A DNA stretch of 64,000 bases, taken from Deltaproteobacteria bacterium (lineage in GTDB: Bacteria > Bdellovibrionota_C > UBA2361 > SZUA-149 > JADZAE01). The notes beneath the pieces are model-generated. The model did not search any database. It saw nothing but the letters and a program-made list of their open reading frames with translations, and had not been told where the DNA came from. The stretch's first letter is position 1. Every line of letters starts with the position of its first letter. Below are positions 20,931-64,000 of this stretch, piece after piece. The stretch is taken from positions 192,965 to 256,964 of the forward strand of contig JADZAE010000034.1 of assembly GCA_020852715.1 (NCBI GenBank), read 5' to 3'. Both the position numbers and the translations under genes were made by a program.

Positions 20931-22088
20931 TTACCTTCTTAAATCGTCATTGCAGCTACAAAGGCCAGCTCTTCCGACACAATAAATTTCTTTGATTTCC
21001 GATCCCGCAATCGGCAGACCACCCGAAACGGCACGCCAAACGGCTGGGCTTTCCATACAAAAATAAACGGGTATATTCGCAGCAACTGATTTAAGTTCTT
21101 GCCACATAAAACGCAACATTTTTAATCTAATTGGCTGCAAATAACGTATTTTATAATCTTTGGCTAAAAATTGTTCGCCATAAGGCAGCTTACTTTCAGG
21201 AAAACGCGCTATCATAATCGACTGTAAATCTTTGTGATAGCGCAAAGTAGAAAGGCTTATCCAGGCCACTTGGCTTGGCCGAACATGCTCAAAAATACTC
21301 TTAATTGTTTCCCGATATTCGTCCTGCCAACCCGAAAAATGAACAATCGGATCAAAATGAAAACCGACTCTATACCCGGCTTCAGCCGCCAATGCCGCAG
21401 CCTTCAATCTTTCCTTTAATGGATGCGCGCCCAGCTCGTCATGTTCGGTAACAGATTTCGCATTCAGCGACCAGGATACCACTGTTTTACCTTGGTGCTC
21501 GTTTTTCAGCGTTAACAGATTATTGATGTTGGCCGTCTTAGTTTTCAGCTCCAGCACCCCATTTTCCAAGCGGGCAAAAAGCGGCACCATCGACAAAGAG
21601 AAATCTGTCAAATTATCCCAAACCAAACTATCTCCCATTTCCCCAGTACAAACGCGAAACAACCTACTAGGCTCAGCTTCCAAGCGCTGCTGAACCGTTG
21701 CCATTAAATTTTCAGTGTTTGTATAAATTTTTAAAGTCGGATTTCTTCGTAAATAAGCTTGCAAAATACAATACGTACAATCCAGCGGACAACCTTCAGC
21801 TTGGTTAACCACATATAGATTACAACAGATATGCCGCGCTGTGCCTGGACAGGCCTTAAGCCAATTGCCTTTATAGCGCGTCAAAAGGAGAGTTTGCTTA
21901 CCTTCTGCCATGCGTGCGTCTTGTTCTAAAGCAGCACTTGTAGCCAATGGATCTTTCGAAGAGGGGTACTTGATTATCTGCACATTTGTACCCAGACGAC
22001 CTAAAATACGCTTACTGAGCTGATCTTCAGCAGCTTCCGCACTAACATAAACAGTCTGAATATCTTGATAAGTAAAAACCCGCTCCAT
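20931..22088 (-). CDS. Radical SAM protein of the spore-photoproduct-lyase (SplB/COG1533) family
   Basis: CPLDCTYCILQ (Cx3Cx2C) cluster. 385 aa. Confidence 0.6.
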   Translation of the reverse strand: MERVFTYQDIQTVYVSAEAAEDQLSKRILGRLGTNVQIIKYPSSKDPLATSAALEQDARMAEGKQTLLLTRYKGNWLKACPGTARHICCNLYVVNQAEGCPLDCTYCILQAYLRRNPTLKIYTNTENLMATVQQRLEAEPSRLFRVCTGEMGDSLVWDNLTDFSLSMVPLFARLENGVLELKTKTANINNLLTLKNEHQGKTVVSWSLNAKSVTEHDELGAHPLKERLKAAALAAEAGYRVGFHFDPIVHFSGWQDEYRETIKSIFEHVRPSQVAWISLSTLRYHKDLQSIMIARFPESKLPYGEQFLAKDYKIRYLQPIRLKMLRFMWQELKSVAANIPVYFCMESPAVWRAVSGGLPIAGSEIKEIYCVGRAGLCSCNDDLRR

Positions 22089-22093
22089 CTATT

Positions 22094-22624
22094 TCACTTC
22101 TTACCCAAAAGAAGGTCGAAGATTTCTTTTAAACGCTGATCTATCGCCAGAGAGGCGAGACGTTCAGTATTTTCTTTTAATTCCCCCGGGGAAGCAAATG
22201 ACAAGGAGAGTGTTAAGTTATCGCCCTCCAACTCTTCAGGAACTTTCATGCTAAAGCCGTGGTCGGTAAGCAAAGATTTCTGCAAAGACTGCAGCTCCTC
22301 CAGCAGCGCCTGCTTAAGCGGGTATCTTTTAGTCTCTAGCCATTGACGCAATTCCTTTTGTTTTTCTTTGCGGCTATTTTTTTCAGCCAATATCGCCTGC
22401 CATAGCTCCACGCTAACTATCGCTTCCGTCCCCACTCCCTCACGACCGGCTATCTCTAGCAATAAAACAATAATCTGCCTTAAATAATTTAAACTGGGTC
22501 TTAACTCGACAAGTAGGCTTTCAATAAACGGATAAGACTGAGGCGAGAGCTTAGTCACCAAATCAGCCAAGGCGTTGTCCGCCCGGTAGCGGTTTAAATA
22601 ATCAGAGATTTGCGTTGAGACCAT
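22094..22624 (-). CDS. Hypothetical protein
   Basis: 176 aa ORF that closely follows the radical SAM gene on the same strand. Confidence 0.4.
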   Translation of the reverse strand: MVSTQISDYLNRYRADNALADLVTKLSPQSYPFIESLLVELRPSLNYLRQIIVLLLEIAGREGVGTEAIVSVELWQAILAEKNSRKEKQKELRQWLETKRYPLKQALLEELQSLQKSLLTDHGFSMKVPEELEGDNLTLSLSFASPGELKENTERLASLAIDQRLKEIFDLLLGKK

Positions 22625-22728
22625 AGAAATAGCAATAAAAAAGCCAACGTTTTGTTATCACTAGTCACTAATCCAAACTAATAACTATGTCAAAACGTCG
22701 GCTATTTCTTCGCTTTACGCTATTTCCC

Positions 22729-25572
22729 TCAAGGGATATACTTTTTGCTTCCCCTTCTCGGCAAAACAATTTTCTCAATCAGACTCTTGCCTGTGCCTTC
22801 ATTAGTCGTTTTGTAGTAATATACCGCATTCTCACTCGGACGGTAGATAGCGACATCAGCATACATGTCCCCATCTAAACTTAAAACGAGAGGCAAATCA
22901 CCCGGCTGGCCAAAGTTATAATAATATTCGGTCTTGTAATTACTATTGTAGTAATAGAAGTAATATGTGCCGAAAGCTTTATTGGCCGAATAAAGCACTG
23001 CATCATCCTTACCATCCCCATCATTATCAAATGCCAACGGAATCGAATTTTTGCGTGCAATAAATGAAATGCTGTTATATGGATCCGATGAGGGCTTAAT
23101 TTTCCACTCCCCGGTAGCTGCATAATAAACAGCAAGATCAGTAAATCCATCCCCATCATAATCGCCGGGCACCGGCCGACCCAGAGGAGCAAAGTTCACG
23201 GTCTTCACTTCCTGTGTTGCACAATTTTTCCTGAGCCATAATCCGTCTTTCTTGCGATAAAGGGCAAGATCCACGCATTGGTTGCCGTAATAACGCCCGG
23301 GCACAGGAACATAAGAGCTGCTCGGCCCAAAATTCACTGCCCCGACTTGCGCTATCCCCGCCATATTCTTGGTTGAATATAACCAAGAACCATTATGATA
23401 GCTGACTTTGTCGCTAATTCCATCGCCGGTCATATCCATCGGTAAACCAACAATGCGCTTGCTTTTCTTTTTCCACTTCTTGGATGCGCCAACAAGCTGA
23501 TTGCTATTGGAATAATAGAGCGTCAAATTCCCTGTGCGGCGATTATAGATTCTAAAAGCAAGATTGGTTTTAGCATTACCATAAGGAATTACTACTTCGC
23601 CTTTGCCGTCACCGTTACTGTCAGTATCGGCGACTATCTTATTTTGCCGAACCGAAAACACGCATGGCTTGCCATCATTATAGGACTTTCTGCACTCAAG
23701 CGAAGTCACCGGGAAATTATCTTCGGTTAAGGCTTGACCATTACTATCTAAGAAAAAATAATTGGTCAGCTGAGCAATGACGCGATAGTTGACTCCGTAA
23801 GGAAGCGCCTTAGTAAACCGACCGTCGCTATTTGTGTAGAGAACATAATCAGCAGTTGTATTATCATATAAATACATTGTGATCTTTGCACCGGCTACCC
23901 CCTTACCCGCTTTATTTAACACGTAACCGACAATATTATTCACTGCCTCATCGCCCGGCTGCAGATCAAAGTTTAAGACTTTATTACTGCCGATATTAGT
24001 AACACCCTGAGTTATGAGCGAGCTTGTCTTTACGCGTGCATCAGCTGCCGGTACCAGCATGCAAGAAGCACCGCGTGGTATGTTTTCTATTTTATAATTA
24101 CCATTGGCATCAGCGACTTGATTGCTGCCACAAGTGGTAGTTACTGTTATTCCGGCTAGCGGATGATTATAGATACTTACTGTTCCCGATATCGAATATT
24201 TAGGTAAGTTAATAATCGACTTCGATACAGCGCGAAAATTCGCGTCTGCTCTGCTGCTATAAAGCGTGCCACTAATCTCATTAGCATCGCCAATAGCGCT
24301 ATGAAATGTATAGTCAACACTATATTCCGGAGCTATTCTATATTGGTAATTAGGAACTATTTTTTCAAATTTATAAACTCCATAACTGTCAGTAGAAGCG
24401 ACAACATAAGCTGATGGATTCCTGGTAGCATCAAAATAACCCCTAACCTTAATACCGCTTAATGGATAACCATTCATGGTCACCTTCCCGCTAACTACCA
24501 CATTTCGCTCAGCTAAAACTTTTGCCAGGGCTGTGGAAGCATTTGCTATACCACCGGAAACTGTTTTACCACTAAGTGAAGAAAGCTCAGTCCTGGTAGC
24601 TATTAAGATGTCACGTACTTGGCGGGGCGTTAAATTTGGATCTTCACCAAATATCAGCGAGGCAATACCGGCGACATAAGCTGTTGCCGGCACACCTCCG
24701 TCAATATTTCCATGGCTATCACCATTTATCGCTGAATAAATCTCTTTACCCGGAGCGGCAATATGCACAGAAGTCGCCCCATAATTAGCCGTAAGAGCGC
24801 CAGTTTTTGCTACTCCGGTAACTGTAATGATATTTTCTAATCCCAAGTTGGCCGGATAACGCTTATTATTAGGATTATCGAGATCTAAATTGGAAGTCCC
24901 GGCATTAGCTACAATCAAAATTTTTCGTTTATTGCTTTCATTTATGGCAGCCTTAAGCCCATCAATTTCTTCGATGCTTAGACTGGGGAGGGCATAGAGA
25001 AAATAAATCACGCGCACATTAACACCCCTGTCACTCATAGTGTTCACATAGGTAATCGCCTTTTTAACCGTATTTACCGCAACCGATGAACCCGATTGAA
25101 CATTTAGAATCATTAATTTAGCTGCCCAGTTCACACCGGTTGTGCCAATAGCATTATTGGAACTTGCCCCGATAATGCTGGCAGCCGCAGTACCTCTGCT
25201 GCCGGAATCAACTTCCTGCGGATAAGCATCGTTATAGGCACAATCGTAGCCATTGTAGTCATCGATAAAACCGTTACCATCATCGTCAACACCGTTGCCC
25301 GGCTTTTCGGATGCGTTAACCCAAAGTTTACCTTTTAAGTCCGGATGATCAAGGTCGATTCCGCTACCAATGACCGCCACCACTGAATTGCTCTGTCCGG
25401 TCGTACGATCCCATGCCTCCGGAGCATTGATATCCATAGATTGGTTAGACGTATTATTTAATCCCCACTGCTTACCATAATAGAGGTCATTAGGAGCGCG
25501 TGCCAAACAAGTTACCGCACTTAAACCAAAACTAAGCGCAGTAGCAGCAAACAAACGAGTGAAATTTTTCAT
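22729..25572 (-). CDS. Secreted catalytically inactive subtilase (S8) homologue fused to C-terminal beta-sandwich and FG-GAP-like repeat domains
   Basis: Signal peptide. Aligns by eye along the subtilisin core: VAVIGSGIDLDHPDL, GSRGTAAASIIGA, APGKEIYSAINGD...GGVPATAYVAGIASL. D32 is replaced by G, H64 by R, and S221 by V. C-terminal DYDGDGFTDLAVY-type repeats. Confidence 0.8.
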   Translation of the reverse strand: MKNFTRLFAATALSFGLSAVTCLARAPNDLYYGKQWGLNNTSNQSMDINAPEAWDRTTGQSNSVVAVIGSGIDLDHPDLKGKLWVNASEKPGNGVDDDGNGFIDDYNGYDCAYNDAYPQEVDSGSRGTAAASIIGASSNNAIGTTGVNWAAKLMILNVQSGSSVAVNTVKKAITYVNTMSDRGVNVRVIYFLYALPSLSIEEIDGLKAAINESNKRKILIVANAGTSNLDLDNPNNKRYPANLGLENIITVTGVAKTGALTANYGATSVHIAAPGKEIYSAINGDSHGNIDGGVPATAYVAGIASLIFGEDPNLTPRQVRDILIATRTELSSLSGKTVSGGIANASTALAKVLAERNVVVSGKVTMNGYPLSGIKVRGYFDATRNPSAYVVASTDSYGVYKFEKIVPNYQYRIAPEYSVDYTFHSAIGDANEISGTLYSSRADANFRAVSKSIINLPKYSISGTVSIYNHPLAGITVTTTCGSNQVADANGNYKIENIPRGASCMLVPAADARVKTSSLITQGVTNIGSNKVLNFDLQPGDEAVNNIVGYVLNKAGKGVAGAKITMYLYDNTTADYVLYTNSDGRFTKALPYGVNYRVIAQLTNYFFLDSNGQALTEDNFPVTSLECRKSYNDGKPCVFSVRQNKIVADTDSNGDGKGEVVIPYGNAKTNLAFRIYNRRTGNLTLYYSNSNQLVGASKKWKKKSKRIVGLPMDMTGDGISDKVSYHNGSWLYSTKNMAGIAQVGAVNFGPSSSYVPVPGRYYGNQCVDLALYRKKDGLWLRKNCATQEVKTVNFAPLGRPVPGDYDGDGFTDLAVYYAATGEWKIKPSSDPYNSISFIARKNSIPLAFDNDGDGKDDAVLYSANKAFGTYYFYYYNSNYKTEYYYNFGQPGDLPLVLSLDGDMYADVAIYRPSENAVYYYKTTNEGTGKSLIEKIVLPRRGSKKYIP

Positions 25573-25787
25573 ACAACCTCAAAATAAAAAATACCGAAAA
25601 ACCAGACTACAATAATTATGGGCAAACGCTAAAAAAGTGTGGCACTCAGCAACATGAAATTATGACTCGATATGAGCCAAATTAAATGTTACCGAGGGGG
25701 TAATGCATAGTGTTGAAAATACTAGATTAAGTTATACGATGAGTCATAATTCCGGTTACCGAAAAGCAAGAAAGGGAGTAACCGAAG

Positions 25788-26873
25788 ATGAAACAAGAGC
25801 TAACAGGCATAGGATTAGAAAGGTTTAGGCGGTCGTATCTAAGAGCGGGAAAAGGCAAAAAAGGTGAGAATTTAACAAGCTCCGGATTTAGATCAGTAGT
25901 TCAAGTTACCGGTCCGGCTGAAGCCATTTATTCAACATTATCCAATAATATCTATAGGCAATATACCAAATCTTATCTAGGAGCAGCCCATGTTGCAGGC
26001 ATAGCGTCGCTAATGCTCGTAGAAAATCCAGATCTAACCCCGATGGAAGTCATCACTAAATTAAAAGAAGCCAAGCGAAGCAGTAGCAATATAGTTGATG
26101 CTAATAGCGCAGTGGCAAAAGCTAAAATCTCTAGAAGTTTCATTGTTCGCCGACAGGTGGTTTTAAAAGTAAACAATACAACATATCCGCTGCGAGGAAT
26201 TAAAGTTACTGCCAATTTCACTAAGGCTCAAGGGGGAAACGTTTCCGATGATCTTACTACAGATGTCAATGGTCAATATAGCTTCAAAAACATTGGTAAA
26301 CTTGGGGATACTTACAAAATCACAATACCACAAACTGATGGTTATTTTTTTACTAATTACACTAATAGCGCCACAATAACCGATAGAGTCAGCATTGCAA
26401 ATTTCACCACAACTTCCATTCCCGCATTTAGCAGTGGTACAAGATATAAAATTTCAGGACGATGCAGTGTCTATATCAAGCCATCAGGAGAATGGAAAAT
26501 AAAACTATCTAAACCGGGGGGAAAATTTGAAACAATAAGCTTTGACGCTCGTCCTAACGCTATCCCGTTGGCGATTGATTACGACGGTGATGGTTTCGAC
26601 GAAGCAGTTGTCTATGATACTAGCAATATCTACGGTATATGGTTTTTCTATCATTATGATCACTTGTTCCAATTTCAGAAAAATAATTGGTATAAAGTGG
26701 GTCAAGCCGGAGATTTACCAATGACATTAAATCTTGATGGAGACAACAGAGGGGACATTTATCTCTATCGCCCCAGCACAAATACTATTTATAATTATGT
26801 AACAACAAAGGAATCGGCCCAGGCAATTTATCTTCCTGACGTGGCTGAAAAAAATATATTTCCTAATATGTGA
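25788..26873 (+). CDS. Truncated paralogue of the subtilase-like protein (C-terminal S8 segment plus FG-GAP-like repeats). Possible gene remnant.
   Basis: GPAEAIYSTLSNNIYRQYTKSYLGAAHVAGIASLML aligns with the Ser221 region of subtilisin (Ser->Tyr). C-terminal 110 aa are clearly paralogous to the 947-aa protein. No signal peptide or N-terminal catalytic half. Confidence 0.5.
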   Translation: MKQELTGIGLERFRRSYLRAGKGKKGENLTSSGFRSVVQVTGPAEAIYSTLSNNIYRQYTKSYLGAAHVAGIASLMLVENPDLTPMEVITKLKEAKRSSSNIVDANSAVAKAKISRSFIVRRQVVLKVNNTTYPLRGIKVTANFTKAQGGNVSDDLTTDVNGQYSFKNIGKLGDTYKITIPQTDGYFFTNYTNSATITDRVSIANFTTTSIPAFSSGTRYKISGRCSVYIKPSGEWKIKLSKPGGKFETISFDARPNAIPLAIDYDGDGFDEAVVYDTSNIYGIWFFYHYDHLFQFQKNNWYKVGQAGDLPMTLNLDGDNRGDIYLYRPSTNTIYNYVTTKESAQAIYLPDVAEKNIFPNM

Positions 26874-26901
26874 AGATAAAACAAATAAGGTCACATTTAT
26901 C

Positions 26902-27561
26902 TTAGGCGTTTTGCTTTTCGTATAGCTGGGCGTATTCAATATCCAGCGCGTCATAGGCTTTTTTCAGCTGGGCGTATTGTTGATTGACTTCGGTAATTCG
27001 CTCTTGATACCAGATAACTTTCTCTTGGCTTTCGATTAGCTCTGTCTTCGTTTTGTTTAGCGTCTGCACGGCCGCTTGCGAATGCGATAATTGCTCTAGT
27101 AATCGATCTAACTCTTCTAGTGAATCATCGAGCTCGACTTTAATCTTTTCTGTCTGCTTACCCAGGTCTAACTCTTGTTTTTTTAATATCTCCAGCTCTT
27201 TGGAAGCTTCTAAGGCGCTAGCTTCGAGTTCACGGGAAATCTCTTCCAGCTCCGAAGCGCGCTGTCTTGCGTGATCGAGCTCGGCAGAGGAGAGCTTACT
27301 TTTATCCTGCTCTTCTTCTAAGGTCTCTTTAACTTGCTCATAATGCCTGACGGTTTTGTTGTAATCCTCTTTGTTGACATAACCACTTAAGGAGTTAACC
27401 ATCTCCTTAGCAACGATCTCTTTTTGCTCTTTTTCTTTTCTTAAAATAACAATATTTTCTCTGAGTACTTTAGCCAAAGCTAAGGATTTACGGTAAATAA
27501 CCATTCCCCATCCGCCTACAGCAAGAGCAAACATCGTGATTAATGCTATTATACCAAACAT
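26902..27561 (-). CDS. Membrane-anchored coiled-coil protein
   Basis: N-terminal TM helix followed by about 190 aa of heptad-like E/K/L/Q-rich sequence. Confidence 0.5.
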   Translation of the reverse strand: MFGIIALITMFALAVGGWGMVIYRKSLALAKVLRENIVILRKEKEQKEIVAKEMVNSLSGYVNKEDYNKTVRHYEQVKETLEEEQDKSKLSSAELDHARQRASELEEISRELEASALEASKELEILKKQELDLGKQTEKIKVELDDSLEELDRLLEQLSHSQAAVQTLNKTKTELIESQEKVIWYQERITEVNQQYAQLKKAYDALDIEYAQLYEKQNA

Positions 27562-27569
27562 AAAAGACT

Positions 27570-30185
27570 TTATAATTTACCGTTTAACATCTCTTCGGCC
27601 AACTTCTGCGTATCCTCTTCGCTCATCGCTCCCGTTTGCGATTCCGCTTCTTCCTGAGGCAAGGAATTTTCTTCGCTTTTATTGCCCGCATCTTCAACCG
27701 GTGACTCCACCGCTTCTTGAGCTTCTTCTTTAGGCATGGTCGGCTCCGGCTTTACCTCTGAAACTGCCGCTTCTTCATTTATAGCTTGAGTCACTGCCTC
27801 GTTTCCTTCTACTGGGGCATCCCCAGAAACTTCTGCTGATGGCTCCGGCGTCGCATCACGAGCATCTCCCATTAACCAATCCAGTCCTTGCTCAGAATTT
27901 TCACTGGGCAAGTTAACTTGGAGGACCTGTAAGCGATTGGCAAGTTCTTGTTCATCCGCTACCAAAAGACGCTTATTTTCCGAAATATGGTTTTTGATTT
28001 CCATCACCTGCACAACCAGATCCTTGGGTAAGTGAAAATCAGTGAGCGATAGCACTTCTTCCTGCTTTTCGCCGGCCATGCGCTTCAGAGCAAGAACCCC
28101 GCAAGCGCTGTAGCAACAAAATAGCAGAATGCAGCTACCCAGCGCCCAGCCCGTGCTAACCGGCTCGCCAAAAATGTCGCGTCCATCGTCTTCCGTAGCC
28201 TCCACCTCGACAACAGCGGTCGCTTCATGCTCGGCAACAACGTAACTGATGGGTTTAGAAACTGTCGCCTGAACATGTCCGGGTTCGCCAATTTCAATTT
28301 TAGCTTGAACTTCATAAGTTCCGGGCTCGACCAAATTACTCGTCGCTATATCTCCGCTACCATTTTGCAGAGACTCTGAGGCTATAGCAAAATGCAAGAT
28401 CTCACTCTGGCCTTTCTTTTTCGCTTCTACCAATATTCTTGACTTACTAGCCAACATCTGTTTGGCAATGCTAACTCTAAAAACCTCTCGACCGGGCGCT
28501 CCCGTTGTGGCTTCTTTATTAACGACATTGAGAATTACCGGCTCAGCTTCAACGCGATAAGACATTACCTGCTGACGAGTGAAAGTTGGCGAGCGCGCTG
28601 TCACGAAAAGCTTATATTCGCCCAGCTTATCCATTTTAATTACGCTCGAATACATATTATCGCCGGCGGTCTGGTCTCCTTCTTGCCCGTCATCTTTTAG
28701 ACTTCCTTCGGCCACTACTTGACTACTAGCCATATCCAGTACTCGATAAGAGAAGAAAAGCAGTTCTTTGATCTGCGGATCGGCAATCACTTGGTTATCC
28801 TGGGATAAACGAGCTACTAATCTGGCTTGATCGTCGATACGAAATCCACCTTCCGGCCACTGAACCTGCATTTTTATATTGGTTAGCAACGTGGCAAAGC
28901 CTTGTTTAACCTCGACTCCATCTACTGTCCATGCCCCTTCGGTTGGGGTGCGCACAGTGATAATATCGAATAGCTCGGCTTTGTACCATCTTACTCCCAC
29001 CGGCAAATTGTTACTGCTAATCTGTTTCCCAAAAGGATCGGACAAAATAACATTATCCGACTCTTCTTTCTTCCTATTGATATAGAAAGTGGCTTCATCA
29101 ATGCCCGAAGAAATTTCAAAACCGTTAGGGTCGAGAACAGCTAACTGAGGTTTCTTTAGATTGAGAAATAAATCAGAAAATCTTAGATGAATCTGGTCAA
29201 CGGAGTTTGCAAACCAGTTCATGCCGCCTGTCGCTTGCGCTAATTTATCAAGCAGCATTTGGTCCGCCTCTTCACTGAAAGATAAAGTATATAATTTGAC
29301 GTGGCGCTTACGATACAAGGGTAAATCAATTTTTTGCAGTTCTTCGGTGAAATGTCGTGCTGTGCCTCGACTGGGACGTGGATCCATCTTGCCATCGCTA
29401 AGCAAAATCACGGCTTTGGTTGCATTTGGACGCCCCTGCGCGATCAGCGCGTCTATCGCCTGTCGAATACCGGCTTGCAAATCAGTAAATCCGCCCTCAT
29501 TGCTAACGCTACTAATTGCCTTGTCTAACTGAGGAATTCTATTTTCCGACAAAGTCATAAACGGCTGCACTTCTTTAGCCTCAGCGTCAAATTGGTAAAT
29601 CGCAACTCTGTCTTGGCTATCTAATATACGCAGTAGTAATTTAGCTCCCTGCTCTCTAAGCTTGTAAGGATCCGTTCTCTGCATGCTCCGCGACGAATCT
29701 AAGAGCAGCACTACATCCAAAGAGTCAGACGAACTCATTTCTTCATCTAACTGTTTAGCTATTTCTTTGGATGAGAGACTAATATTAGTTGTCTTTTTGG
29801 GTAGCGGTTCGGCAGGTGCTTCAACCTTTGCTGTTGTAACTTCTTGTTCAACTTCTACCGGCTCTAAAACGCCAGCAGCTTCTTGTTCGGCCTGCTGTTT
29901 ACGAATTCTTTCTAGGCGTCGCTCTCTTTGTTTCTCGCGAATCTTCTTGATCATTTCCCCGTCAATAGCCGACCTAGCTTCACCTTCTCCGCCTTCTGCC
30001 TTTTTCTCTTTTTCCTTACCCTTCTCTTTTTCAGCCTTATGCTCGACTTTCTTAGCCTCAGTTTTTTTCTTCTCGCCGCCGCCTTCAACGTTTTTATCAC
30101 CGGAGGCAAAAACATCTGGCGGCATGGAAGCACAGAAACAGCAAAACAGCAGTAAGACCAGTAATAGTTGTGTTATCTTATTCAT
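27570..30185 (-). CDS. von Willebrand factor A domain-containing bitopic membrane protein
   Basis: Signal peptide. Lys/Glu-rich low-complexity N-terminus. vWA MIDAS motif VVLLLDSSRSM. C-terminal TM (ILLFCCYSACGVLAL) followed by an acidic coiled-coil tail. 871 aa. Confidence 0.7.
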   Translation of the reverse strand: MNKITQLLLVLLLFCCFCASMPPDVFASGDKNVEGGGEKKKTEAKKVEHKAEKEKGKEKEKKAEGGEGEARSAIDGEMIKKIREKQRERRLERIRKQQAEQEAAGVLEPVEVEQEVTTAKVEAPAEPLPKKTTNISLSSKEIAKQLDEEMSSSDSLDVVLLLDSSRSMQRTDPYKLREQGAKLLLRILDSQDRVAIYQFDAEAKEVQPFMTLSENRIPQLDKAISSVSNEGGFTDLQAGIRQAIDALIAQGRPNATKAVILLSDGKMDPRPSRGTARHFTEELQKIDLPLYRKRHVKLYTLSFSEEADQMLLDKLAQATGGMNWFANSVDQIHLRFSDLFLNLKKPQLAVLDPNGFEISSGIDEATFYINRKKEESDNVILSDPFGKQISSNNLPVGVRWYKAELFDIITVRTPTEGAWTVDGVEVKQGFATLLTNIKMQVQWPEGGFRIDDQARLVARLSQDNQVIADPQIKELLFFSYRVLDMASSQVVAEGSLKDDGQEGDQTAGDNMYSSVIKMDKLGEYKLFVTARSPTFTRQQVMSYRVEAEPVILNVVNKEATTGAPGREVFRVSIAKQMLASKSRILVEAKKKGQSEILHFAIASESLQNGSGDIATSNLVEPGTYEVQAKIEIGEPGHVQATVSKPISYVVAEHEATAVVEVEATEDDGRDIFGEPVSTGWALGSCILLFCCYSACGVLALKRMAGEKQEEVLSLTDFHLPKDLVVQVMEIKNHISENKRLLVADEQELANRLQVLQVNLPSENSEQGLDWLMGDARDATPEPSAEVSGDAPVEGNEAVTQAINEEAAVSEVKPEPTMPKEEAQEAVESPVEDAGNKSEENSLPQEEAESQTGAMSEEDTQKLAEEMLNGKL

Positions 30186-31096: not shown

Positions 31097-33394
31097 ATGA
31101 AAGAGGTGCGTGACATGAGTATCGGAAAAAAATATTTATTGACCTTAACTGCTTTTGTCTTGCTTACCGGCATGGCATCGGCAAGCGTCGAGGTTGCTAA
31201 TAAAGGCATCGCCAGCGATAGCCTCACCGTTTCCACAGATTTTGATGGTGACGGCAAGGGAGATCTCTTTGCTTACGATCCTTCCATTGGTAAATTTTAT
31301 GTTCGCCGCAGTAGTAATAAAACTGTTGGTAGTTTTATTTTAGGCGGAAAAGGTCTAACCCCGACATTGGGCGATTTTAATGGCGATGGTCGTGGGGATT
31401 TGGCTGTATTTAGCCGCACTTCGGGGAGATGGATAGTGCGTCTCACCGGCATTGCATCATACCGCCTTACTTTAGGGTCACGTGGCGATTATCCGGTTCC
31501 CGGTGACTATTTGGGATTAGGGTGCACTCAATTGGCGACTTATAACCTTAGACGAGGCCGTTGGACCATTGGCAGCTGCGTTAATCCCTCTAGCTCACTA
31601 CAAGTTAAAGCAGCCGCGCCGACAACTGTCACTTTCGGTGGCTCGGCTGGCGGATTGATGGCTGTTCCCTCTGACTATGACTGCGATGGTAGAACGGATC
31701 TCGCGGTTTTTAATCGTTATACCGCTCGCTGGACAATAAAAAAATCCTCGAACAGCGCGACTATATCTTTTAGATACGGGGCAATCGGAGACATGCCTGT
31801 TCCTGCTGATTATCGAGCACAGGGATGCACTCAGGCTGCGGTTTATAAACTTAATACTAACCGTTTTTACGTCTGCAAGGACTGCCGCAACGGAGTAACC
31901 GGCACATCTTATCGCAGCGTTCAGTGGGGATTGTTAGGGGATAGACCGGTATTAGCTAATCCCGATGGAACTCCCGGAGCGAATTACATAGTTTATCGCC
32001 CAAAAGAGCAGAGATTTTATAACTATAGATCGACTAATCCGATGATCATTAGCTCGGCAGCCACTGCCTTAAGCGGTATGCCTGCTAGTTTATTGCCCGT
32101 GTCCCCTCTGCATGTTCTTAATTCCTACCAAAAGGGAGACTATAACCGAGATGGGTTAAGCGATTTTGCCACCGCTGAAGGAAATGACAGTTCGGCGACC
32201 TGGAAAGTCCGCTACAGCATCGACCTAGCTAATCAGCGTAGTGCCATTGTCGCCGCTAAAGGCGATGCCTTGGTCCCTGCTGACTATGATGGTGATGGAG
32301 TAGTTCAGCCGGCCACGGTTACAGCGATTAGTGCTGATGTAATTCGTTGGCGCATTAAGAACCCTTCGGGAAGCGATACAGTTGTCGATTACGGGAAAAA
32401 CGGGGATAAGCCGCTGCCTGGAGATTTCGACTGCGACGGCAAAGCTGATTTGGCCGTTGTGCGCAAGAAAGACGGGATTTTCCTTTTCTGGTATATGCAG
32501 CTTTCTAGTGGCACGAACATCAACGATAAGCTTTTCGGCTTAAATGCTGATTTGCCATTTGTCGGTGATGTTGACGGGGATGGTTGCACAGAAATGGTTG
32601 TCGCTCGTCCGACAGGCACTACTGTTGAATGGTATTATAAGGATATCTACAACAGCACACATAAGATGCTTAGCTGGGGACTACCGACAGACACCGTATT
32701 ATCACCGATGGATATGAACGGAGATAACATCGATGACTTCATTGTCCAACGTGATGTGAACGGAGCTAATGTTGTTTATGTGCGTTATTCACGCTTAGAT
32801 AAGAATAGCTTAAGCTACCCGAACTTCCCTTGGAAGGCGATTAACTTCGGCTTAACAGGCGATGTCACAGCAGTCGGTAACTATGATGGCCCCGGACGTG
32901 CGGAAGTAGCAGTATATCGTCGCAGCACTCCGGCGTACTACTGGAATAAATATCGCTCGCAAACAGTTGTCGTCCCACACGGTGCAGCAACAGACAAAGT
33001 AATTAGACCTGACGGCACTGTTGTTTTACCAGGCGAGACGCCGGGCGGTGGTAGCAATCGTTGCGATGTGAACAAAAGCCCCTATGACGGTGCAAGCAAT
33101 GGTTTTACTTGGAAACCTCATGCCGAGGGAGGAGCTTACGGTGGTCATCCGACCGTCCTTATTCCTTCCGGTTATAGCAGCGTTCGCGAGTTAACATTGT
33201 TATCCTCAAGTGGCGAAGAATTACCTGGTCAACCAAAATTCCGTTACATCCGTCCGGAAGATGGTAGGCCAACGTTCGATAACCCAATGAGCGCAAGCGA
33301 TATGCAAGACTATGCACCGATAACCGTGCTCTTCAATTATGGTGGCAGTAATGTCTGCTACGAAATTGATGATCCGTCGGACCGCCACGACTAA
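31097..33394 (+). CDS. Secreted FG-GAP-like (integrin-alpha-type beta-propeller) repeat protein
   Basis: Signal peptide. About 11 repeats of GDFDGDGKGDLFAY / GDFNGDGRGDLAVF / SDYDCDGRTDLAVF type. Paralogous to the C-terminal parts of ORFs 22729-25572 and 25788-26873. Confidence 0.7.
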   Translation: MKEVRDMSIGKKYLLTLTAFVLLTGMASASVEVANKGIASDSLTVSTDFDGDGKGDLFAYDPSIGKFYVRRSSNKTVGSFILGGKGLTPTLGDFNGDGRGDLAVFSRTSGRWIVRLTGIASYRLTLGSRGDYPVPGDYLGLGCTQLATYNLRRGRWTIGSCVNPSSSLQVKAAAPTTVTFGGSAGGLMAVPSDYDCDGRTDLAVFNRYTARWTIKKSSNSATISFRYGAIGDMPVPADYRAQGCTQAAVYKLNTNRFYVCKDCRNGVTGTSYRSVQWGLLGDRPVLANPDGTPGANYIVYRPKEQRFYNYRSTNPMIISSAATALSGMPASLLPVSPLHVLNSYQKGDYNRDGLSDFATAEGNDSSATWKVRYSIDLANQRSAIVAAKGDALVPADYDGDGVVQPATVTAISADVIRWRIKNPSGSDTVVDYGKNGDKPLPGDFDCDGKADLAVVRKKDGIFLFWYMQLSSGTNINDKLFGLNADLPFVGDVDGDGCTEMVVARPTGTTVEWYYKDIYNSTHKMLSWGLPTDTVLSPMDMNGDNIDDFIVQRDVNGANVVYVRYSRLDKNSLSYPNFPWKAINFGLTGDVTAVGNYDGPGRAEVAVYRRSTPAYYWNKYRSQTVVVPHGAATDKVIRPDGTVVLPGETPGGGSNRCDVNKSPYDGASNGFTWKPHAEGGAYGGHPTVLIPSGYSSVRELTLLSSSGEELPGQPKFRYIRPEDGRPTFDNPMSASDMQDYAPITVLFNYGGSNVCYEIDDPSDRHD

Positions 33395-44851: not shown

Positions 44852-47422
44852 TTATTGCCAACCACCTGTATTACCACCAGCATTGCCACCGCCATCTAAT
44901 CCGCCAATACTTCCCCAATTAATCATAGGTTGCCCGCCCTGCTGCTGAATAACCATATTCAGCATATCCATAAGCGGGTCATTTGGATTCTTCTTTTTAC
45001 TTGGTTGGCGGGGGGGGTTACTGTTTTTACCGCAACCGCGATCAGAACCAACAGGGCCCCAAATCGCTTCGCATTTTGCGCGATTTGCCCGGTTCACGGT
45101 TCCAACAAATGGATAAATTTGATAGGCCGAACAGGCATAAGGGAAATCTGCCGGAAAGCCTTTTCTTACAGTCCCATAAAGCTTATCTTTGGTGGGGAAC
45201 TCATCTCCTTGATCACGCCAAGGGTTAGAGCCAAAGGCATTATAGGCTTGGCAACCCCAACCTTTCTTTTTAATAGGCAGATTATCTTCGATAATTGAGC
45301 GATACTGACAAGAGCAGGCTGTTCTTCTATTCCAGAACATCAAGCGTACAGAACCCAAATGCCATGACTGCATCAGATCGGCAGGAAATTCCGCATGATT
45401 TTGCTCCCAGACCCAGGGGACATCTATACCTGAATCTTGAGATTCAGAAGATGAACTACTGGAACTGAAGCCGGAAGAAAGCTGATTATACATATAAGGT
45501 GTCGAGCTGGCGCTAGACGAACTTTGGCTACTAGACTCAAAGGTTACATCTTTGGACTTCATTTCCCCTTTGTCGCTAGGATTCATGCGAAAGCAACGAC
45601 TCACTTTAGGGTAAACCAACTGCAGTTTATCAATATACATTTTCCTAGCCGAGGGATCTTTGCCAAAAAAATCAGTAAATAGCGGTAAGCCTACATGCGG
45701 CACATAAGGAATATTATGTCGCGGCCAGTTATATTGTGTCGGATATTTCTCACGCATTTCTTGCACAAGTTCTAAAAAACGGCGCGCAGCTACAGTCGCT
45801 GAGGTTAACGGATGATGGAAACCACAAACTGTATTGGTTGGCGTCCAAAGAATAGAGCCGTGATAATAACAAAACTCACAATCCCCCTTATCCACCTTTC
45901 CCTGCCCAAATAATCCCGCTAGTGGCGATTGGGGAATGGCATTATTAAACAGCTCTTCACCGCCAACTTTACCCGAGATGTTGCCAAACAATGGATCAGG
46001 AACACCGGCCATATTAGACCAAATTTCGTGGCGACATTTTAGGCATTTATTGATCATCGGTAAAGCTGCTGCTGTTCCACCAAAATACTTTCCCTGAGCA
46101 GCCATCATTTCCTGGGTAGTGACTTCAAATTTAAAATCGCCCATTCCGGGGATACCGGAAAAGTCAGGATGCTCGCCGCGCTTATATTTGTCCTTATTTA
46201 CAAACTGCGTCATGATAGGCTGGCGCCAGAAACGAGCATATTCCGGATATTCTTCTGACCAAGCAACGGGACGAAACTTCTTTTCTAAGTCACCATTTTT
46301 AACCGGTTTATCGGGGAGCGAATCAAGAAAGCAAGGGATATTATTTTTCCAGATATAACCGTTCCACCAATAAGGCCGACTGCAGCAACCTTTACGACAT
46401 CTATAAAACCAGCAACCGTCGGCACCATGACCCGCTCGGCTTTTAGGCCAAGTATAATTAGAGGCTGTGACCTTAGGACGGTAAATATGCGCTTCGAAAG
46501 TCTGGCACTGATCAAGTGGGCTTATACCTCCGGTATGTGTTTGGCCTTTGCCTAATTTCGCCAACGGCCCTTGATAAACATCTTCAATATTCGAAGATTT
46601 ACCTTCCATATCCAAGGCACGGTTAGTTTCAGTTACATTCTTTTCATATTCCGGATAAAAGCTCGAGTCTTTACGTTTGATCAAAGACTTAGTGGATAAA
46701 TCAGGTCGATTAAAAAGCTCTATTGGTTCGGGGTTCACTGCGCTGACACCAAAGTTATTGACGTCGATTTCCCATTCCGGCCACCAATACTCCCAGATCT
46801 CTCCGGGGTTACGACGCGGCATACAGTCGTTAAATGGGTAAACGATTTTCGGCTGACAATATTCACAGTTTTGTCTTTTTAAACGTGGCTCAAAGCATTC
46901 ATGAAACATTTGCCAACCGGCACGACTGGCTTCTCTTGCCGGCGCCGCTTTAGGATTATACTGAAGGTTTGGGTTGGCTAATAATTCTTTCTGGGTTGGC
47001 TTTTTGGGTGCCTCAATATCTTTGGCTACTCCGGCAGGACCTAGAATAGCAACGGTAGAATCAGCTGACCAGTCACCTCCTGAGTATTTGATGTCGCGCC
47101 CATCGCGCCACGGATGTTCTTCAAAAGAACGCTCTTCGATGTTGCTTTTTATGTGTTTGGCCAACTCGCTGGCATCATATTGATAGCTAGGTTCCATCGC
47201 TCTACCCACAGCCTCTTTAACGCGCTGATGCATTATCGGATTATCAATAATCGCACCCGGGTTGTTAATCGTAGCACCTGGGATTGCGCCCCCGGTTGGT
47301 GCAGCTGTAGGCCCGGGATTGTTGATCGTCGGATCACCGCCAACCGTATTATCCATCCACTGTGCCCTAGCCTGACCATAACCTAGTAAAACAAATAAAA
47401 TTGCCACAATTAATTTCTTCAT
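44852..47422 (-). CDS. Large secreted Cys/Trp/Pro-rich protein of unknown function
   Basis: Signal peptide. 856 aa with about 30 Cys in clusters (CEYCQPK, CWFYRCRKGCCSRPYWWNGYIWKNNIPC, CLKCRHEIW, CEFCYYHG). Very high Trp/Tyr content. A Ser-rich tract. A C-terminal Gly/Asn-rich tail. Confidence 0.55.
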   Translation of the reverse strand: MKKLIVAILFVLLGYGQARAQWMDNTVGGDPTINNPGPTAAPTGGAIPGATINNPGAIIDNPIMHQRVKEAVGRAMEPSYQYDASELAKHIKSNIEERSFEEHPWRDGRDIKYSGGDWSADSTVAILGPAGVAKDIEAPKKPTQKELLANPNLQYNPKAAPAREASRAGWQMFHECFEPRLKRQNCEYCQPKIVYPFNDCMPRRNPGEIWEYWWPEWEIDVNNFGVSAVNPEPIELFNRPDLSTKSLIKRKDSSFYPEYEKNVTETNRALDMEGKSSNIEDVYQGPLAKLGKGQTHTGGISPLDQCQTFEAHIYRPKVTASNYTWPKSRAGHGADGCWFYRCRKGCCSRPYWWNGYIWKNNIPCFLDSLPDKPVKNGDLEKKFRPVAWSEEYPEYARFWRQPIMTQFVNKDKYKRGEHPDFSGIPGMGDFKFEVTTQEMMAAQGKYFGGTAAALPMINKCLKCRHEIWSNMAGVPDPLFGNISGKVGGEELFNNAIPQSPLAGLFGQGKVDKGDCEFCYYHGSILWTPTNTVCGFHHPLTSATVAARRFLELVQEMREKYPTQYNWPRHNIPYVPHVGLPLFTDFFGKDPSARKMYIDKLQLVYPKVSRCFRMNPSDKGEMKSKDVTFESSSQSSSSASSTPYMYNQLSSGFSSSSSSSESQDSGIDVPWVWEQNHAEFPADLMQSWHLGSVRLMFWNRRTACSCQYRSIIEDNLPIKKKGWGCQAYNAFGSNPWRDQGDEFPTKDKLYGTVRKGFPADFPYACSAYQIYPFVGTVNRANRAKCEAIWGPVGSDRGCGKNSNPPRQPSKKKNPNDPLMDMLNMVIQQQGGQPMINWGSIGGLDGGGNAGGNTGGWQ

Positions 47423-48950: not shown

Positions 48951-51002
48951 TCATGGAAATAGATAGGGGATTAACTCCTTACCGCTGAGTCCAGCACCGA
49001 AATATAGGGGCTTTTCAGGATAGAGCTGATTGTAATGCGTTTGCTTTGCTTCATAGGTGCTGATGCGCTCTTGCTTAAGAATTTCGCTCCACTGGGCTAC
49101 TTCCTTAAGATAATTAAGATTAATGCTTGCCCGCGATTGAAAATCTAGGTCATTCGATACTGCCCAAAACTGAGAGGCTAGGTGCAGGGCCAAAATAACA
49201 GTAAGGCATTTTCTAGCTAAGGCGTTTTTTAACTTAGCATCTGAGATAATATAGTAAGCAAAGATGCAGATCCCAACAAAAGCTAAGTGCTGATAACGTA
49301 ACGATAAAGATTGCTGATAACAGTAAATCCAGCGCCCTATAGCCGGTAGCAGCAGAGAAATAATAAGCCAAGCCTGAGATATTAGATATACGCCTATAAC
49401 GCTGCGGTTATTCTTTTTGGTTTTAAAAGTCAGCCCCATGGCCAGCAAAGACACAAGCAGACCACAAAGAGCAAGCGTGATTTCCGGAAAATATCGGATA
49501 AAGGGCACTGCATTTAAAAGTTCATTCGGCGCATAAAGCGATAAAAACGGAAAAAGCCCCAAGCCACGTAAAATAGTTCCTAATTGTGAACCAATAAAAA
49601 GATAAGCCAAAAAACGCCGAACTATTTTTCCCGTACTAAATTCGCTGGCCATAGTAGCTTGCGCGCTTGGCGCCTGCAGGACCTCGGTAAACATATAAAG
49701 CACCAACACAAGCACAGCAGCAAGCATAGAAATTATTCCCAGCCTAAGCACGGCGCGGCGATTAAAATGACCGTTAATCGCCAACTCCAAAATGCAAACT
49801 AGCCCCACTAAAGCAAAGGCGGCTAAGCCATTGCCAAAGGACAAACAAGCAAGTAAAAGAAGAATATTTGCCTTAATTAAGGCCAGAGATTTATTTTCGC
49901 GAAGATACTGCAAGCCAAAACAAAAGCCCCAGAGCACAAAAACCTGCATCAACAACAAGCATTGAACAAAAGGCCATTGCAGCACTTCAGCTTGCAAACA
50001 GCTTATGGCAAAGAACAACAAAAGCATGCGCCGAGTAATAGTATTACTATTTTTGTAAAACAACGCGGCCAGAAATTTATCCAATGATAAAACGCTAAGC
50101 ATAAACAAAAGATAAGTCACGAGCGAATAACCTAAATACCAACTACCGAATACCTTAAGCTGAATAAAATATAAGGCAAAGAAAAGCGGAATAAAATGCT
50201 CATTATGACTTTGAAAAATCATACGCCACCCTTCGTCCACGCTCTTTATCAAAATATTCCATTCATCAGCATAAAAAGACAAAGGCATCTTAAAATGAAC
50301 CAAGGCACTTAGCGCCAGCACAAGCAAGGCAAAATTAGCAGTTTTTGTTAAATACGGCCCACATTTAAGAATAAACAAAGCAAGCGCAGCACCCAATAAA
50401 ACACAAATAACCAGGCGGCCACCTTTGAGCGGCTGAACCCAAGCGTCACCAGCTGCGGCACGAAAGAAATTCAAGCGCCGCTTAACTGTCAGCTGTTGAA
50501 AAACAGCACTGGCAGCGCTCACCTGTATATAAACATCTTTACCAATATGCTCAGGGGAAACAGTAAACTGAAAAGGTATAAAATACTTTTTCTGTTCTTC
50601 ATTTACTATCGATAAGGGAACAATAAATTGCGCAATTTGCTCGCCGTCTTTGCTCTTTACTTGCAGCTTAAAATCGGCACGACTTTTGTAAACAAATTCT
50701 ATGATGTTTCGAGTCAATTTGAAGCTCGACGAGCGACAAAATTCTTGTGCAATAATCGCATCGCCTTGAAAATAGCATTCCCTACGCTCCGGCCTAGCGC
50801 CCTGTTCCCAATTAAGACCAATGAAAGAATCATAATCAGCCGTCGGATAAACAAGTAGCAAACGATAAAAAATCACCGCCGCCAGAAACAGTAAAAGCCA
50901 GGTAATTTTCTTAATAGTTGGTGACACCGGGTTCCTTAAATTTTCACAATTTAACCCAGGCGGTCGTATAGCAGTATGGCTAATAAAAGCCAAAGCCTGC
51001 AA
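48951..51002 (-). CDS. Polytopic membrane protein (about 14 TM) with N-terminal extracytoplasmic domain. Possibly a GT-C-type glycosyltransferase.
   Basis: 683 aa. One N-terminal TM, a soluble domain of about 150 aa, then many TM helices. FYADEW acidic motif in an early loop. No family assignment possible by eye. Confidence 0.5.
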   Translation of the reverse strand: MQALAFISHTAIRPPGLNCENLRNPVSPTIKKITWLLLFLAAVIFYRLLLVYPTADYDSFIGLNWEQGARPERRECYFQGDAIIAQEFCRSSSFKLTRNIIEFVYKSRADFKLQVKSKDGEQIAQFIVPLSIVNEEQKKYFIPFQFTVSPEHIGKDVYIQVSAASAVFQQLTVKRRLNFFRAAAGDAWVQPLKGGRLVICVLLGAALALFILKCGPYLTKTANFALLVLALSALVHFKMPLSFYADEWNILIKSVDEGWRMIFQSHNEHFIPLFFALYFIQLKVFGSWYLGYSLVTYLLFMLSVLSLDKFLAALFYKNSNTITRRMLLLFFAISCLQAEVLQWPFVQCLLLMQVFVLWGFCFGLQYLRENKSLALIKANILLLLACLSFGNGLAAFALVGLVCILELAINGHFNRRAVLRLGIISMLAAVLVLVLYMFTEVLQAPSAQATMASEFSTGKIVRRFLAYLFIGSQLGTILRGLGLFPFLSLYAPNELLNAVPFIRYFPEITLALCGLLVSLLAMGLTFKTKKNNRSVIGVYLISQAWLIISLLLPAIGRWIYCYQQSLSLRYQHLAFVGICIFAYYIISDAKLKNALARKCLTVILALHLASQFWAVSNDLDFQSRASINLNYLKEVAQWSEILKQERISTYEAKQTHYNQLYPEKPLYFGAGLSGKELIPYLFP

Positions 51003-62400: not shown

Positions 62401-64000
62401 TAATATAATTGCCGCTGGCTTGCTTACTATTAAACGTGGTCCAGTCGCCTGAGCTTAAGTAACCATTAGTCGAACCATTAGCCTGCGTTATGGAAAGCGC
62501 TCCGGCAGCCGATAAAGACAGTGGGGCACTGGCACTTACAGCTACAGTTCCTGAAGCATCAGGTATAGTAATCGTTCTATCCGCGGTCGGATCTGTTACC
62601 GTGACTAATGTTTCATTGGCATTTGCTGTAGCACCTTCGAAGATCAGTCCTGTTGTGGCAAATGCTGCATAGTTAGCAGTTAAAGCCGGGTCGGCAGCCA
62701 AGGTTGCTGTGCGATCCAGCGTTAAAGTCGGGTTTCCGGAAACACCGTTACCGTTGGAAACAGCAACATCAAACGTCGTTCCGGTTAGGGTGCGGCCGGT
62801 AAAGGTATCAGCGGCTGTTTGTGTTAATAAGCCGTTAGTGTTGTATGAAGCTAAAGCGCTTAAAGTGGCATCGCTTGCTTGATACCCTGAGTGTCCGTGT
62901 CCACCCGCACAAAAATAACCGCTATCACAATCACCGGTAGCGTCTCCGGTTATCGTATAGGCGGTTGTCCCGCTACCGCTACAACTGGTAGCAGCATTGG
63001 TACATGTTAAAGTGCTTAACTCATTGGTCGTGCTGCCATCAACTTCAGTAGCGCTGATAGTCAAAGTATCGCTCGCGGCATTTCCGGTAATAGAAACGAT
63101 TCCACCAGCAGCTAAGGTCAGAGTATCGGTTGTGCTGTCGGCTACCGGATCTGTGCCCGCTGGTGCGTCAAAAGTCTGGAAGATATTCTGCAACTCATTG
63201 CTCGTGCTGCCATCAACTTCAGTAGCGCTGATGGTTATAGTGTCAGTGGAGGAGTCACCGGTTACCGTAACTATGCCACCACCACTTAGGTTTAATGTGT
63301 CTGTTGTGCTGTCAGCTACGGGATCTGTACCGGAAGAAGCATTGATTGTTTCAAATAGATTCTGGCTATAGGCGCTATGTGTATGGCCGCTGGAAGCAAA
63401 AGCTCCCGAATCCAGGCCGTCTAACAAATCAGCGTTAAGGTTGGTGTTAAGCGTAGTTGAGGTGATAGCAAATGGCGATGTGCCGTTGGCCACAGTGGAA
63501 GTGTAGCGCGTGGCTGAAACTAGGCCATTAACGGTCAAATCCTTACTGACTGCTGTCGTGCCAATGGCGACATTGCCTAATAAGCTCGCATCGCCGCTGA
63601 CACTTAGAGTGTTGCTTAAAGTAGTGGTGCCCGTAACATTAGCCGTTCCGGCTACAGACAACTTGTAATCAGGCGCAGTGGTGCCAATACCAACATTTGT
63701 TCCGTTGTCATAAATAATAGAATCGCCAACGCTTCCCGAGCCGAAAAATTTGGTGACATAGTTAAGCGTTCCGCTTCCGGTTATTCCCGTCAGGTCAGTG
63801 TCACAACTCCACGTTCCGTTTGTACCATTATAAAGAAGCTTATCTCCGGCTCCGGAACAATTGGAGCTATAGTTGATAGATACCGTCGGAGCCGGGCCTG
63901 TTGAATTGCTTACCGAGATACCGTTTCCGGCATTAACATCGGTTAAGTCACCGCCGGCGTCGCCGGTGATAGAATCCCAACTAAGCACACCGTTAGCGCC
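59465..64000 (-). CDS. Giant tail-fibre-like surface protein with C-terminal S74-type intramolecular chaperone domain (N-terminus lies beyond the window end)
   Basis: ORF open at the window edge (more than 1507 aa). Recurrent [13 protein letters not shown] repeats. Gly/Thr/Ser/Ala-rich beta-strand composition. C-terminal ...[12 protein letters not shown]...NPVKFKYN...[13 protein letters not shown] and a final coiled coil, matching the autoproteolytic chaperone domain of phage tailspike/endosialidase-type proteins. Confidence 0.75.

Follow-up and report, generated by a model that had tools for sequence, protein, structure and literature searches.

A subtilase homologue with a dismantled active site and a predicted FG-GAP beta-propeller in a Deltaproteobacteria bacterium

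Pseudoenzymes have been estimated to account for 10–15% of a typical genome (PMC7200643). In the subtilase (S8) family, described cases include CspC and CspA of Clostridioides difficile, two catalytically dead homologues that regulate the germinant signal and act together with the active protease CspB (PMC7200643). Both are spore proteins that keep an uncleaved prodomain and carry two pseudoactive-site substitutions each, which have been reverted in '2xcat' constructs (Q757/A1064 in CspA; PMC7200643). Subtilases normally require such a prodomain as a folding chaperone (PMC7200643). On a different protease fold, UmbA of the Streptomyces umbrella toxin contains a trypsin-fold domain with an incomplete triad and no detectable activity, which binds the N-terminus of UmbB without cleaving it; the cleft holds the partner's extended N-terminus, and the fused beta-propeller lectins target cell-surface glycopolymers of another cell (PMC11062931). 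Here, we describe a dead S8 homologue encoded in a 64,000-nucleotide stretch of DNA, hereafter the window, from a Deltaproteobacteria bacterium (GTDB lineage Bacteria; Bdellovibrionota_C; UBA2361; SZUA-149; JADZAE01; GenBank assembly GCA_020852715.1, contig JADZAE010000034.1, positions 192,965 to 256,964 of the forward strand). The gene occupies window positions 22729–25572 on the minus strand, to which all features of this protein given below belong, and forms a single complete open reading frame (ORF) of 947 amino acids plus a stop codon, in exact agreement with the coordinates of an earlier note on this DNA, which named no strand. With moderate confidence, we favor the view that its product (P0001) is a secreted, non-catalytic pseudo-subtilase, descended from a multidomain S8 protease and kept by selection as a binding protein.

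The 947-residue protein is a true S8 homologue. The Pfam family Peptidase_S8 (PF00082) matches residues 61–330 with 82.2 bits against a cutoff of 21.8 (E = 5.3e-23), spanning profile positions 2–276 of 288. The best solved relative is deseasin MCP-01 (3vv3), which phmmer aligns with residues 25–349 at 34% identity (E = 3.3e-47), followed in the PDB sequence search by Plasmodium SUB1, AprV2/BprV, thermitase, and the classical subtilisins; altogether, 110 PDB subtilases match at E ≤ 0.01. An AlphaFold2 (AF2) model of the S8 part has a predicted local distance difference test score (pLDDT) above 90 over most of residues 25–355, a score that comes largely from the alignment of active homologues and is therefore weak independent evidence of folding, and superposes on 3vv3 with a template modeling (TM) score of 0.93 and a root-mean-square deviation of 1.6 Å (Foldseek). 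The earlier note had recognized an S8-like N-terminal domain by eye from three peptide strings; all three are present (VAVIGSGIDLDHPDL at residues 65–79, GSRGTAAASIIGA at 124–136, and APGKEIYSAINGD..GGVPATAYVAG at 273–302), and the profile search and the structural superposition agree on the assignment. The public entry for the protein is titled 'MAG: S8 family serine peptidase [Deltaproteobacteria bacterium]'; it is encoded on a contig of 258 kb and is the only member of its cluster.

The subtilase domain (S8A, deseasin/thermitase-like; residues 25–355, 24508–25500) no longer has an active site. When 124 S8 domains from the 120 best homologues, the window protein included, were aligned with MAFFT, the catalytic Asp and His, the oxyanion-hole Asn, and the nucleophilic Ser (D/H/N/S) were found in all 123 other domains, and G69, R126, T226, and V294 in the window protein only. 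Mapped onto subtilisin BPN′, the changes read D32>G69 (codon GGT, 25366–25368), H64>R126 (AGA, 25195–25197), N155>T226 (ACT, 24895–24897), and S221>V294 (GTG, 24691–24693); D32, H64, N155, and S221 of BPN′ themselves fall in the expected columns. The family motif HGTHVxGT around the His has become RGTAAASI, and SGTSMAxPH around the Ser has become DGGVPATAY, in which T220>G, M222>P, and P225>A (BPN′ numbering) accompany the loss of the serine itself. The phmmer alignment with 3vv3 likewise sets G, R, and V of the window protein opposite the enzyme's D, H, and S. To restore His or Ser from the codons AGA and GTG would take at least two substitutions each; the loss of the triad is therefore old and not an artefact of base calling. 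The earlier reading of Asp32, His64, and Ser221 as Gly, Arg, and Val is thus confirmed at all three positions by the domain alignment and by the BPN′ mapping, and the loss exceeds that account, extending to the oxyanion Asn, to the prodomain, and to the two strands that bind the substrate. Judged by its sequence, the window protein cannot perform serine-protease chemistry.

The replacements extend well into the substrate-binding cleft. The strand at BPN′ 100–104 carries G100>S163 and G102>V164, and that at BPN′ 125–128 carries S125>L192, L126>Y193, G127>A194, and G128>L195, with YFLYAL (residues 190–195, 24988–25005) standing in place of the family's NNSWGG (BPN′ 123–128). Both main substrate-binding strands now consist of bulkier, mostly hydrophobic residues, and the groove is remodeled. 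To place these changes against the rest of the domain, we considered the 118 alignment columns whose conservation reaches 85% or more across the 123 active domains, and cleft segments set beforehand (BPN′ 30–34, 62–68, 96–107, 123–130, 152–156, and 217–226). The window protein keeps 76 of the 118 columns, versus 94–118 (mean 111.5) in the other domains, and its losses fall on 21 of 29 columns in the cleft versus 21 of 89 elsewhere (odds ratio 8.5, one-sided Fisher p = 3.5e-6). Most conserved columns in the N-terminal third of the domain are kept. Retained as well is a calcium-binding-type loop, D96-x-D98-x-N100-G101-x-x-D104-D105-x-x-G108-x-D110 (residues 96–110, 25243–25287), with the invariant D96, D98, N100, G101, D105, and G108 and the nearly invariant D104. 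Overall, the domain is the most divergent of the 124, with a mean identity of 39% versus 58% (the minimum of the others being 46%), and its terminal branch is the second-longest in a neighbor-joining tree (0.70 versus a median of 0.30).

The N-terminus is shortened as well. Across 119 homologues, the median start of the S8 match is residue 115, and in only two does it begin before residue 60, one of which starts with a residue other than Met and may be partial. In the window protein it begins at residue 25, level with the first residue of the deseasin chain in 3vv3; the prodomain of about 115 residues seen in relatives, an intramolecular chaperone that active subtilases remove autocatalytically, is missing, and the S8 domain directly follows a signal-like peptide. 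An upstream extension is impossible, as the ORF starts at the first start codon past the preceding stop. Read by eye, the signal-peptide-like segment (residues 1–24, 25501–25572; cleavage site uncertain) has K2 and R6 and then a 17-residue hydrophobic stretch, LFAATALSFGLSAVTCL, and the protein is probably secreted. A lipobox was considered by the same means and set aside, A-V-T-C at residues 19–22 departing from the usual pattern. A GAGG ribosome-binding motif lies about 6 nt 5′ of the ATG. A scan of positions 22000–27000 for promoters and terminators did no better than on shuffled sequence (12 promoter-like hits versus 13.3 expected, and 3 terminator-like hits versus 4.2).

Downstream of the subtilase domain, two further regions complete the protein. 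Residues 356–640 (23653–24507) are modeled as beta-strand-rich, at low confidence; CarboxypepD_reg-type Pfam matches lie between residues 346 and 605, with PF13620 reaching 45.2 bits (cutoff 32.3) over two stretches, and DUF6795 matches residues 360–410 at 29.2 bits (cutoff 27.4). These roughly 285 residues suggest about three CarboxypepD_reg/transthyretin-like sandwiches (360–410, 461–505, and 547–605). Residues 641–947 (22732–23652) fall within a very large FG-GAP/VCBS family (2142 homologues, with a repeat consensus of about 47 residues) and contain DxDxDG-type motifs at 651, 713, 804, and 849, as well as an FG-GAP (PF01839) match near residue 800 (E = 2e-6, 27.9 bits versus a cutoff of 22.1). 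Their model (pLDDT 80) is a beta-propeller of about six blades, for which the best PDB match is the UmbA4 chain 9oee_A from teichuronic-acid complexes (E = 2e-7, TMq 0.66, 16% identity); further matches include the fungal N-acetylglucosamine lectins PVL/AAL2 and integrin alpha-V. The model assigns the C-terminus to the FG-GAP beta-propellers of the lectin/integrin type. The fusion to FG-GAP-like propeller repeats proposed in the earlier note is therefore sound, the PF01839 match and the propeller model being in agreement; its domain layout stands for the S8 and FG-GAP parts and has to be amended for the middle region and the missing prodomain, which it did not mention.

These parts can be assembled into a tentative mechanism. 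The signal-like peptide would export the protein, which would then fold; the propeller, and perhaps the beta-sandwich domains, would bind a surface carbohydrate or a protein ligand; and the remodeled S8 domain would serve as a structural head, or would dock a partner peptide that is held but not cleaved. A binding, scaffold, or adhesin role, as suggested earlier, may be envisaged on this basis. Among analogues of such an arrangement, UmbA is the best documented.

The origin of this architecture can be traced in part through more distant relatives. Neither a word-indexed search covering 5.8 billion clusters nor an exhaustive HMMER scan of 1.84 billion cluster representatives, standing for about 15 billion proteins, returned any relative more than 47% identical to the window protein, which is alone in its cluster at 50% identity; in the HMMER scan, the next-best S8 domains reach 44–47%. 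Several metagenomic proteins (P0004, P0005, P0006, P0008, P0010, P0012, and P0013), one of them from a Bdellovibrionales metagenome-assembled genome (MAG), combine an intact D/H/N/S set with C-terminal FG-GAP repeats. They resemble the window protein in both parts, the repeats being 25–40% and the S8 domains 35–38% identical to its own, and differ from it in their intact catalytic residues and in an N-terminal region of about 100–130 amino acids, which in most includes the prodomain family PF22148. Because proteins with intact sites share it, the combination of S8 and FG-GAP appears to be older than the loss of the triad, and the active S8 ancestor probably already carried C-terminal FG-GAP repeats.

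Dead domains occur elsewhere in the same S8 subfamily. In a further 198 domains from the search of representatives, 189 have D/H/N/S, and the few percent of dead domains in this subfamily are probably affected by the same mis-annotation as the window protein, whose public name of serine peptidase is incorrect. Catalytic residues are replaced in the first domains of three tandem-S8 proteins, P0263 (S/A/D/L), P0271 (D/R/D/A), and P0282 (G/Q/D/P). Like the window protein, these domains belong to this subfamily, have several catalytic columns replaced, and show changes of the H67>A and P225>A type; unlike it, they form a clade of their own, about 50% mutually identical, and are fused to a second S8 domain. 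Kinship with them was considered and rejected: they are only 30–34% identical to the window protein (rank 271–315 of 321), whose sisters are intact single-domain proteases. Since the sister sequences are intact and the dead domains form a distant clade, the loss of the triad in the window protein was an independent event, and the alignments indicate that such loss recurs within the subfamily. The presence of a second S8 domain in the same polypeptide makes P0263, P0271, and P0282 reminiscent of CspBA (for at least one of these second domains, the catalytic state is not listed), and P0274 and P0275 have first domains in which only the Ser is changed, to Ala.

A protein that has lost its chemistry may be maintained for another purpose or may be drifting toward extinction, and the reading frame itself bears on this choice. 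In the dead-S8 gene, 4.2% of random single-base changes create a stop codon. When neutral drift was simulated up to the observed excess divergence, the mean number of stops ranged from 5 (S8 domain only) to 17 (whole gene), and none of 200 runs stayed open; a milder excess divergence of 15% likewise left 0 of 200 open. On four counts we favor a maintained non-catalytic protein: an ORF still open at this excess divergence, a concentration of the losses in the cleft, a retained calcium-binding-type loop, and an undamaged signal-like N-terminus and GAGG motif.

The adjacent gene figures in the opposite view. It encodes an old, truncated paralogue (P0381, 'hypothetical protein IT292_04605', 361 aa; 25788–26873, plus strand) that is 30% identical to residues 253–471 and 43% identical to residues 814–947 of the window protein, and consists of the last 100 or so S8 residues, one beta-sandwich domain, and about 2.5 FG-GAP repeats, without a signal peptide. 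The Asp and His regions are absent, and its Ser motif reads TKSYLGAAHV, with Tyr at the Ser221 column; the description of this gene in the earlier note as a truncated paralogue that lacks the Ser is correct on both points, though with two thirds of the S8 domain missing, the paralogue is of little use for judging the triad. It shares P225>A and the string VAGIASL with the window protein, which weakly suggests that the Ser motif had come under relaxed constraint before the duplication. It is a probable remnant, though its ORF is still open, and a search at E ≤ 1e-5 returned no other homologue than itself. A ratio of nonsynonymous to synonymous substitution (dN/dS) between the two paralogues was discarded because synonymous sites are saturated at 30–43% amino-acid identity. 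The two genes are divergently oriented around an AT-rich spacer of 215 bp (25573–25787), and each has a Shine-Dalgarno-like motif (GAGG before the dead-S8 gene and AAGGGAG before the paralogue).

The chromosomal setting was compared by using the adjacent SecA gene as an anchor in 185,579 species genomes. The best SecA match, at 57% identity, is in an uncultured Bdellovibrionales MAG (L001), which shares the flanking genes: a cyclophilin on one side and, on the other, a hypothetical protein, an SPL-like radical SAM enzyme, SecA, EF-P, and a biotin carboxyl carrier protein-like gene. L001, the sole syntenic locus, has no syntenic S8 copy; bioF-bioA-bioD stand in place of the S8 block.

It is on such grounds that the dead-S8 gene could be regarded as decaying, namely, as a duplicated or horizontally inserted S8 copy that became useless and drifts while still uninterrupted, the truncated paralogue representing a later stage. 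The gene and its paralogue are both orphans, the S8 block is missing from the nearest syntenic genome, the domain is the most divergent by mean identity with the second-longest terminal branch, 24% of conserved columns have been lost even outside the cleft, and the adjacent copy is clearly truncated and without a signal peptide. We nevertheless consider decay unlikely, if a serious contender. A reading frame of 2844 nt is free of stops and frameshifts where the simulations produced 5–17 stops and never an open gene, the cleft takes a strongly disproportionate share of the losses (p = 3.5e-6), the invariant calcium loop and the Gly and Pro columns of the scaffold are kept, neither the signal-like N-terminus nor the GAGG motif is damaged, and the FG-GAP repeats score level with those of ordinary family members.

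Several points weigh against a maintained, secreted pseudo-subtilase all the same. Outside the cleft, the protein loses about 24% of conserved columns, versus about 5% in its active relatives, and the whole S8 domain thus appears to be under relaxed constraint. No orthologue was found in the searches described above, and the sequence comes from a single MAG. The drift simulation assumes that the excess divergence is gene-wide and that mutation is uniform. Whereas subtilases normally need their prodomain as a chaperone (PMC7200643), the window protein is without one. Its export is predicted by eye from the N-terminus, and no partner gene is recognizable nearby, the neighbors being vWA, coiled-coil, cyclophilin, and SPL-like radical-SAM genes.

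Alternatively, the window protein might act as a decoy for subtilisin inhibitors, or it might regulate an active S8 paralogue encoded elsewhere in the genome, much as CspC and CspA regulate CspB. Pseudoenzymes often regulate active paralogues, and CspC and CspA do so within family S8 itself (PMC7200643); tandem active-plus-dead S8 proteins, moreover, exist in the same subfamily. There is, however, no active S8 gene within the 64-kb window, and the strands that would receive an inhibitor or a substrate (BPN′ 100–104 and 125–128) are now bulkier, which argues against canonical inhibitor binding. We give this explanation only a small chance of being correct.

Members of the sedolisin (S53) family keep the Ser, with Glu in place of the His and Asp in place of the oxyanion Asn; an alternative triad of this kind was rejected here, the corresponding columns being V294, R126, and T226. 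That the window protein is still an enzyme, through non-canonical or migrated catalytic residues (sedolisin-like Ser/Glu/Asp or another nucleophile) or through a different reaction in the remodeled cleft, is hardly credible: some proteins labeled as pseudoenzymes are reported to have migrated catalytic residues (PMC10211241), and both Thr226 and Thr297 are close to where the active site used to be, but the four catalytic columns (G, R, T, V) retain no nucleophile, base, or acid, the sedolisin pattern fails at a Val in the Ser column, and the strands that would hold a peptide have been rewritten.

The remainder of the neighborhood contains several genes of separate interest. A third FG-GAP/VCBS protein (31097–33394, plus strand; 765 aa), 31% identical to the propeller of the window protein, brings the number of FG-GAP genes to three in about 11 kb. 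Between it and the truncated paralogue, positions 26902–30185 (minus strand) encode a vWA protein (871 aa, with an acidic low-complexity tail) and a coiled-coil protein (219 aa, with a hydrophobic N-terminus). This pair and the S8 block sit between the cyclophilin gene and the genes for the hypothetical protein, the SPL-like radical SAM enzyme, and SecA; the same place in L001 (3942–8360) holds two small proteins with hydrophobic N-termini and bioF-bioA-bioD. The hypothetical protein (22094–22624, minus strand, 176 aa; L001 8357–8821, 154 aa) has no Pfam match and has an ERYPLK motif in both genomes, where it lies directly upstream of the SPL-like radical-SAM gene and SecA; because this position is conserved in both, a functional link between the ERYPLK protein and the radical-SAM enzyme is suggested. 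Farther away, a 1507-aa ORF (59465–63988, minus strand) has as its sole Pfam match a C-terminal Peptidase_S74 domain (endosialidase intramolecular chaperone), which occurs in tail-fiber or tailspike-like self-cleaving proteins, and two ORFs on the minus strand (44852–47422, 856 aa, and 48951–51002, 683 aa) lack Pfam matches at E ≤ 1e-5.

If the gene is maintained, it represents an unusually complete conversion of a secreted subtilase into a non-catalytic module, in which the triad, the oxyanion hole, the substrate strands, and the prodomain have been lost while the calcium site and most of the scaffold are kept. How a subtilase domain can fold when its prodomain chaperone is missing would then become a question in its own right.

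The window protein can also be compared with described systems. With the deseasin MCP-01/thermitase-like S8A enzymes, it shares an N-terminal PNDxxxxxQWGL motif, the DxDxNGxxDD calcium-loop insertion, and C-terminal accessory domains; it differs from them in carrying G/R/T/V where they have D/H/N/S, in its rewritten substrate strands, and in lacking their cleavable prodomain. It belongs to neither the Csp nor the UmbA family. No Csp structure is among its best 60 PDB sequence matches, and no UmbB- or UmbC-like gene was recognized in the window. Dead S8 domains being already known from CspC and CspA, it adds another, independent case: it resembles them as a catalytically dead subtilase homologue and departs from them in having lost four catalytic residues and the prodomain, in its exported-type multidomain layout, and in having no active partner in the window. 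The resemblance to UmbA is one of design only, a dead protease-fold domain combined with a propeller; UmbA4 is also the best PDB fold match of the propeller, if a modest one. By analogy, the protein could be imagined as the S8-fold counterpart of an UmbA spoke, that is, the targeting subunit of an unrecognized extracellular assembly in a Bdellovibrionota-like lineage, in which the hydrophobic cleft would grip an extended peptide of some partner encoded elsewhere, be it a toxin, an enzyme, or an anchor, and the propeller would read the glycopolymer of another cell. We regard this as a long shot; were it true, it would be a second, independent instance in which a dead-protease cleft serves a lectin-linked protein as a plug-in socket. 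As the head of UmbA has the trypsin (S1) fold and that of the window protein the S8 fold, the likeness between the two is convergent at most.

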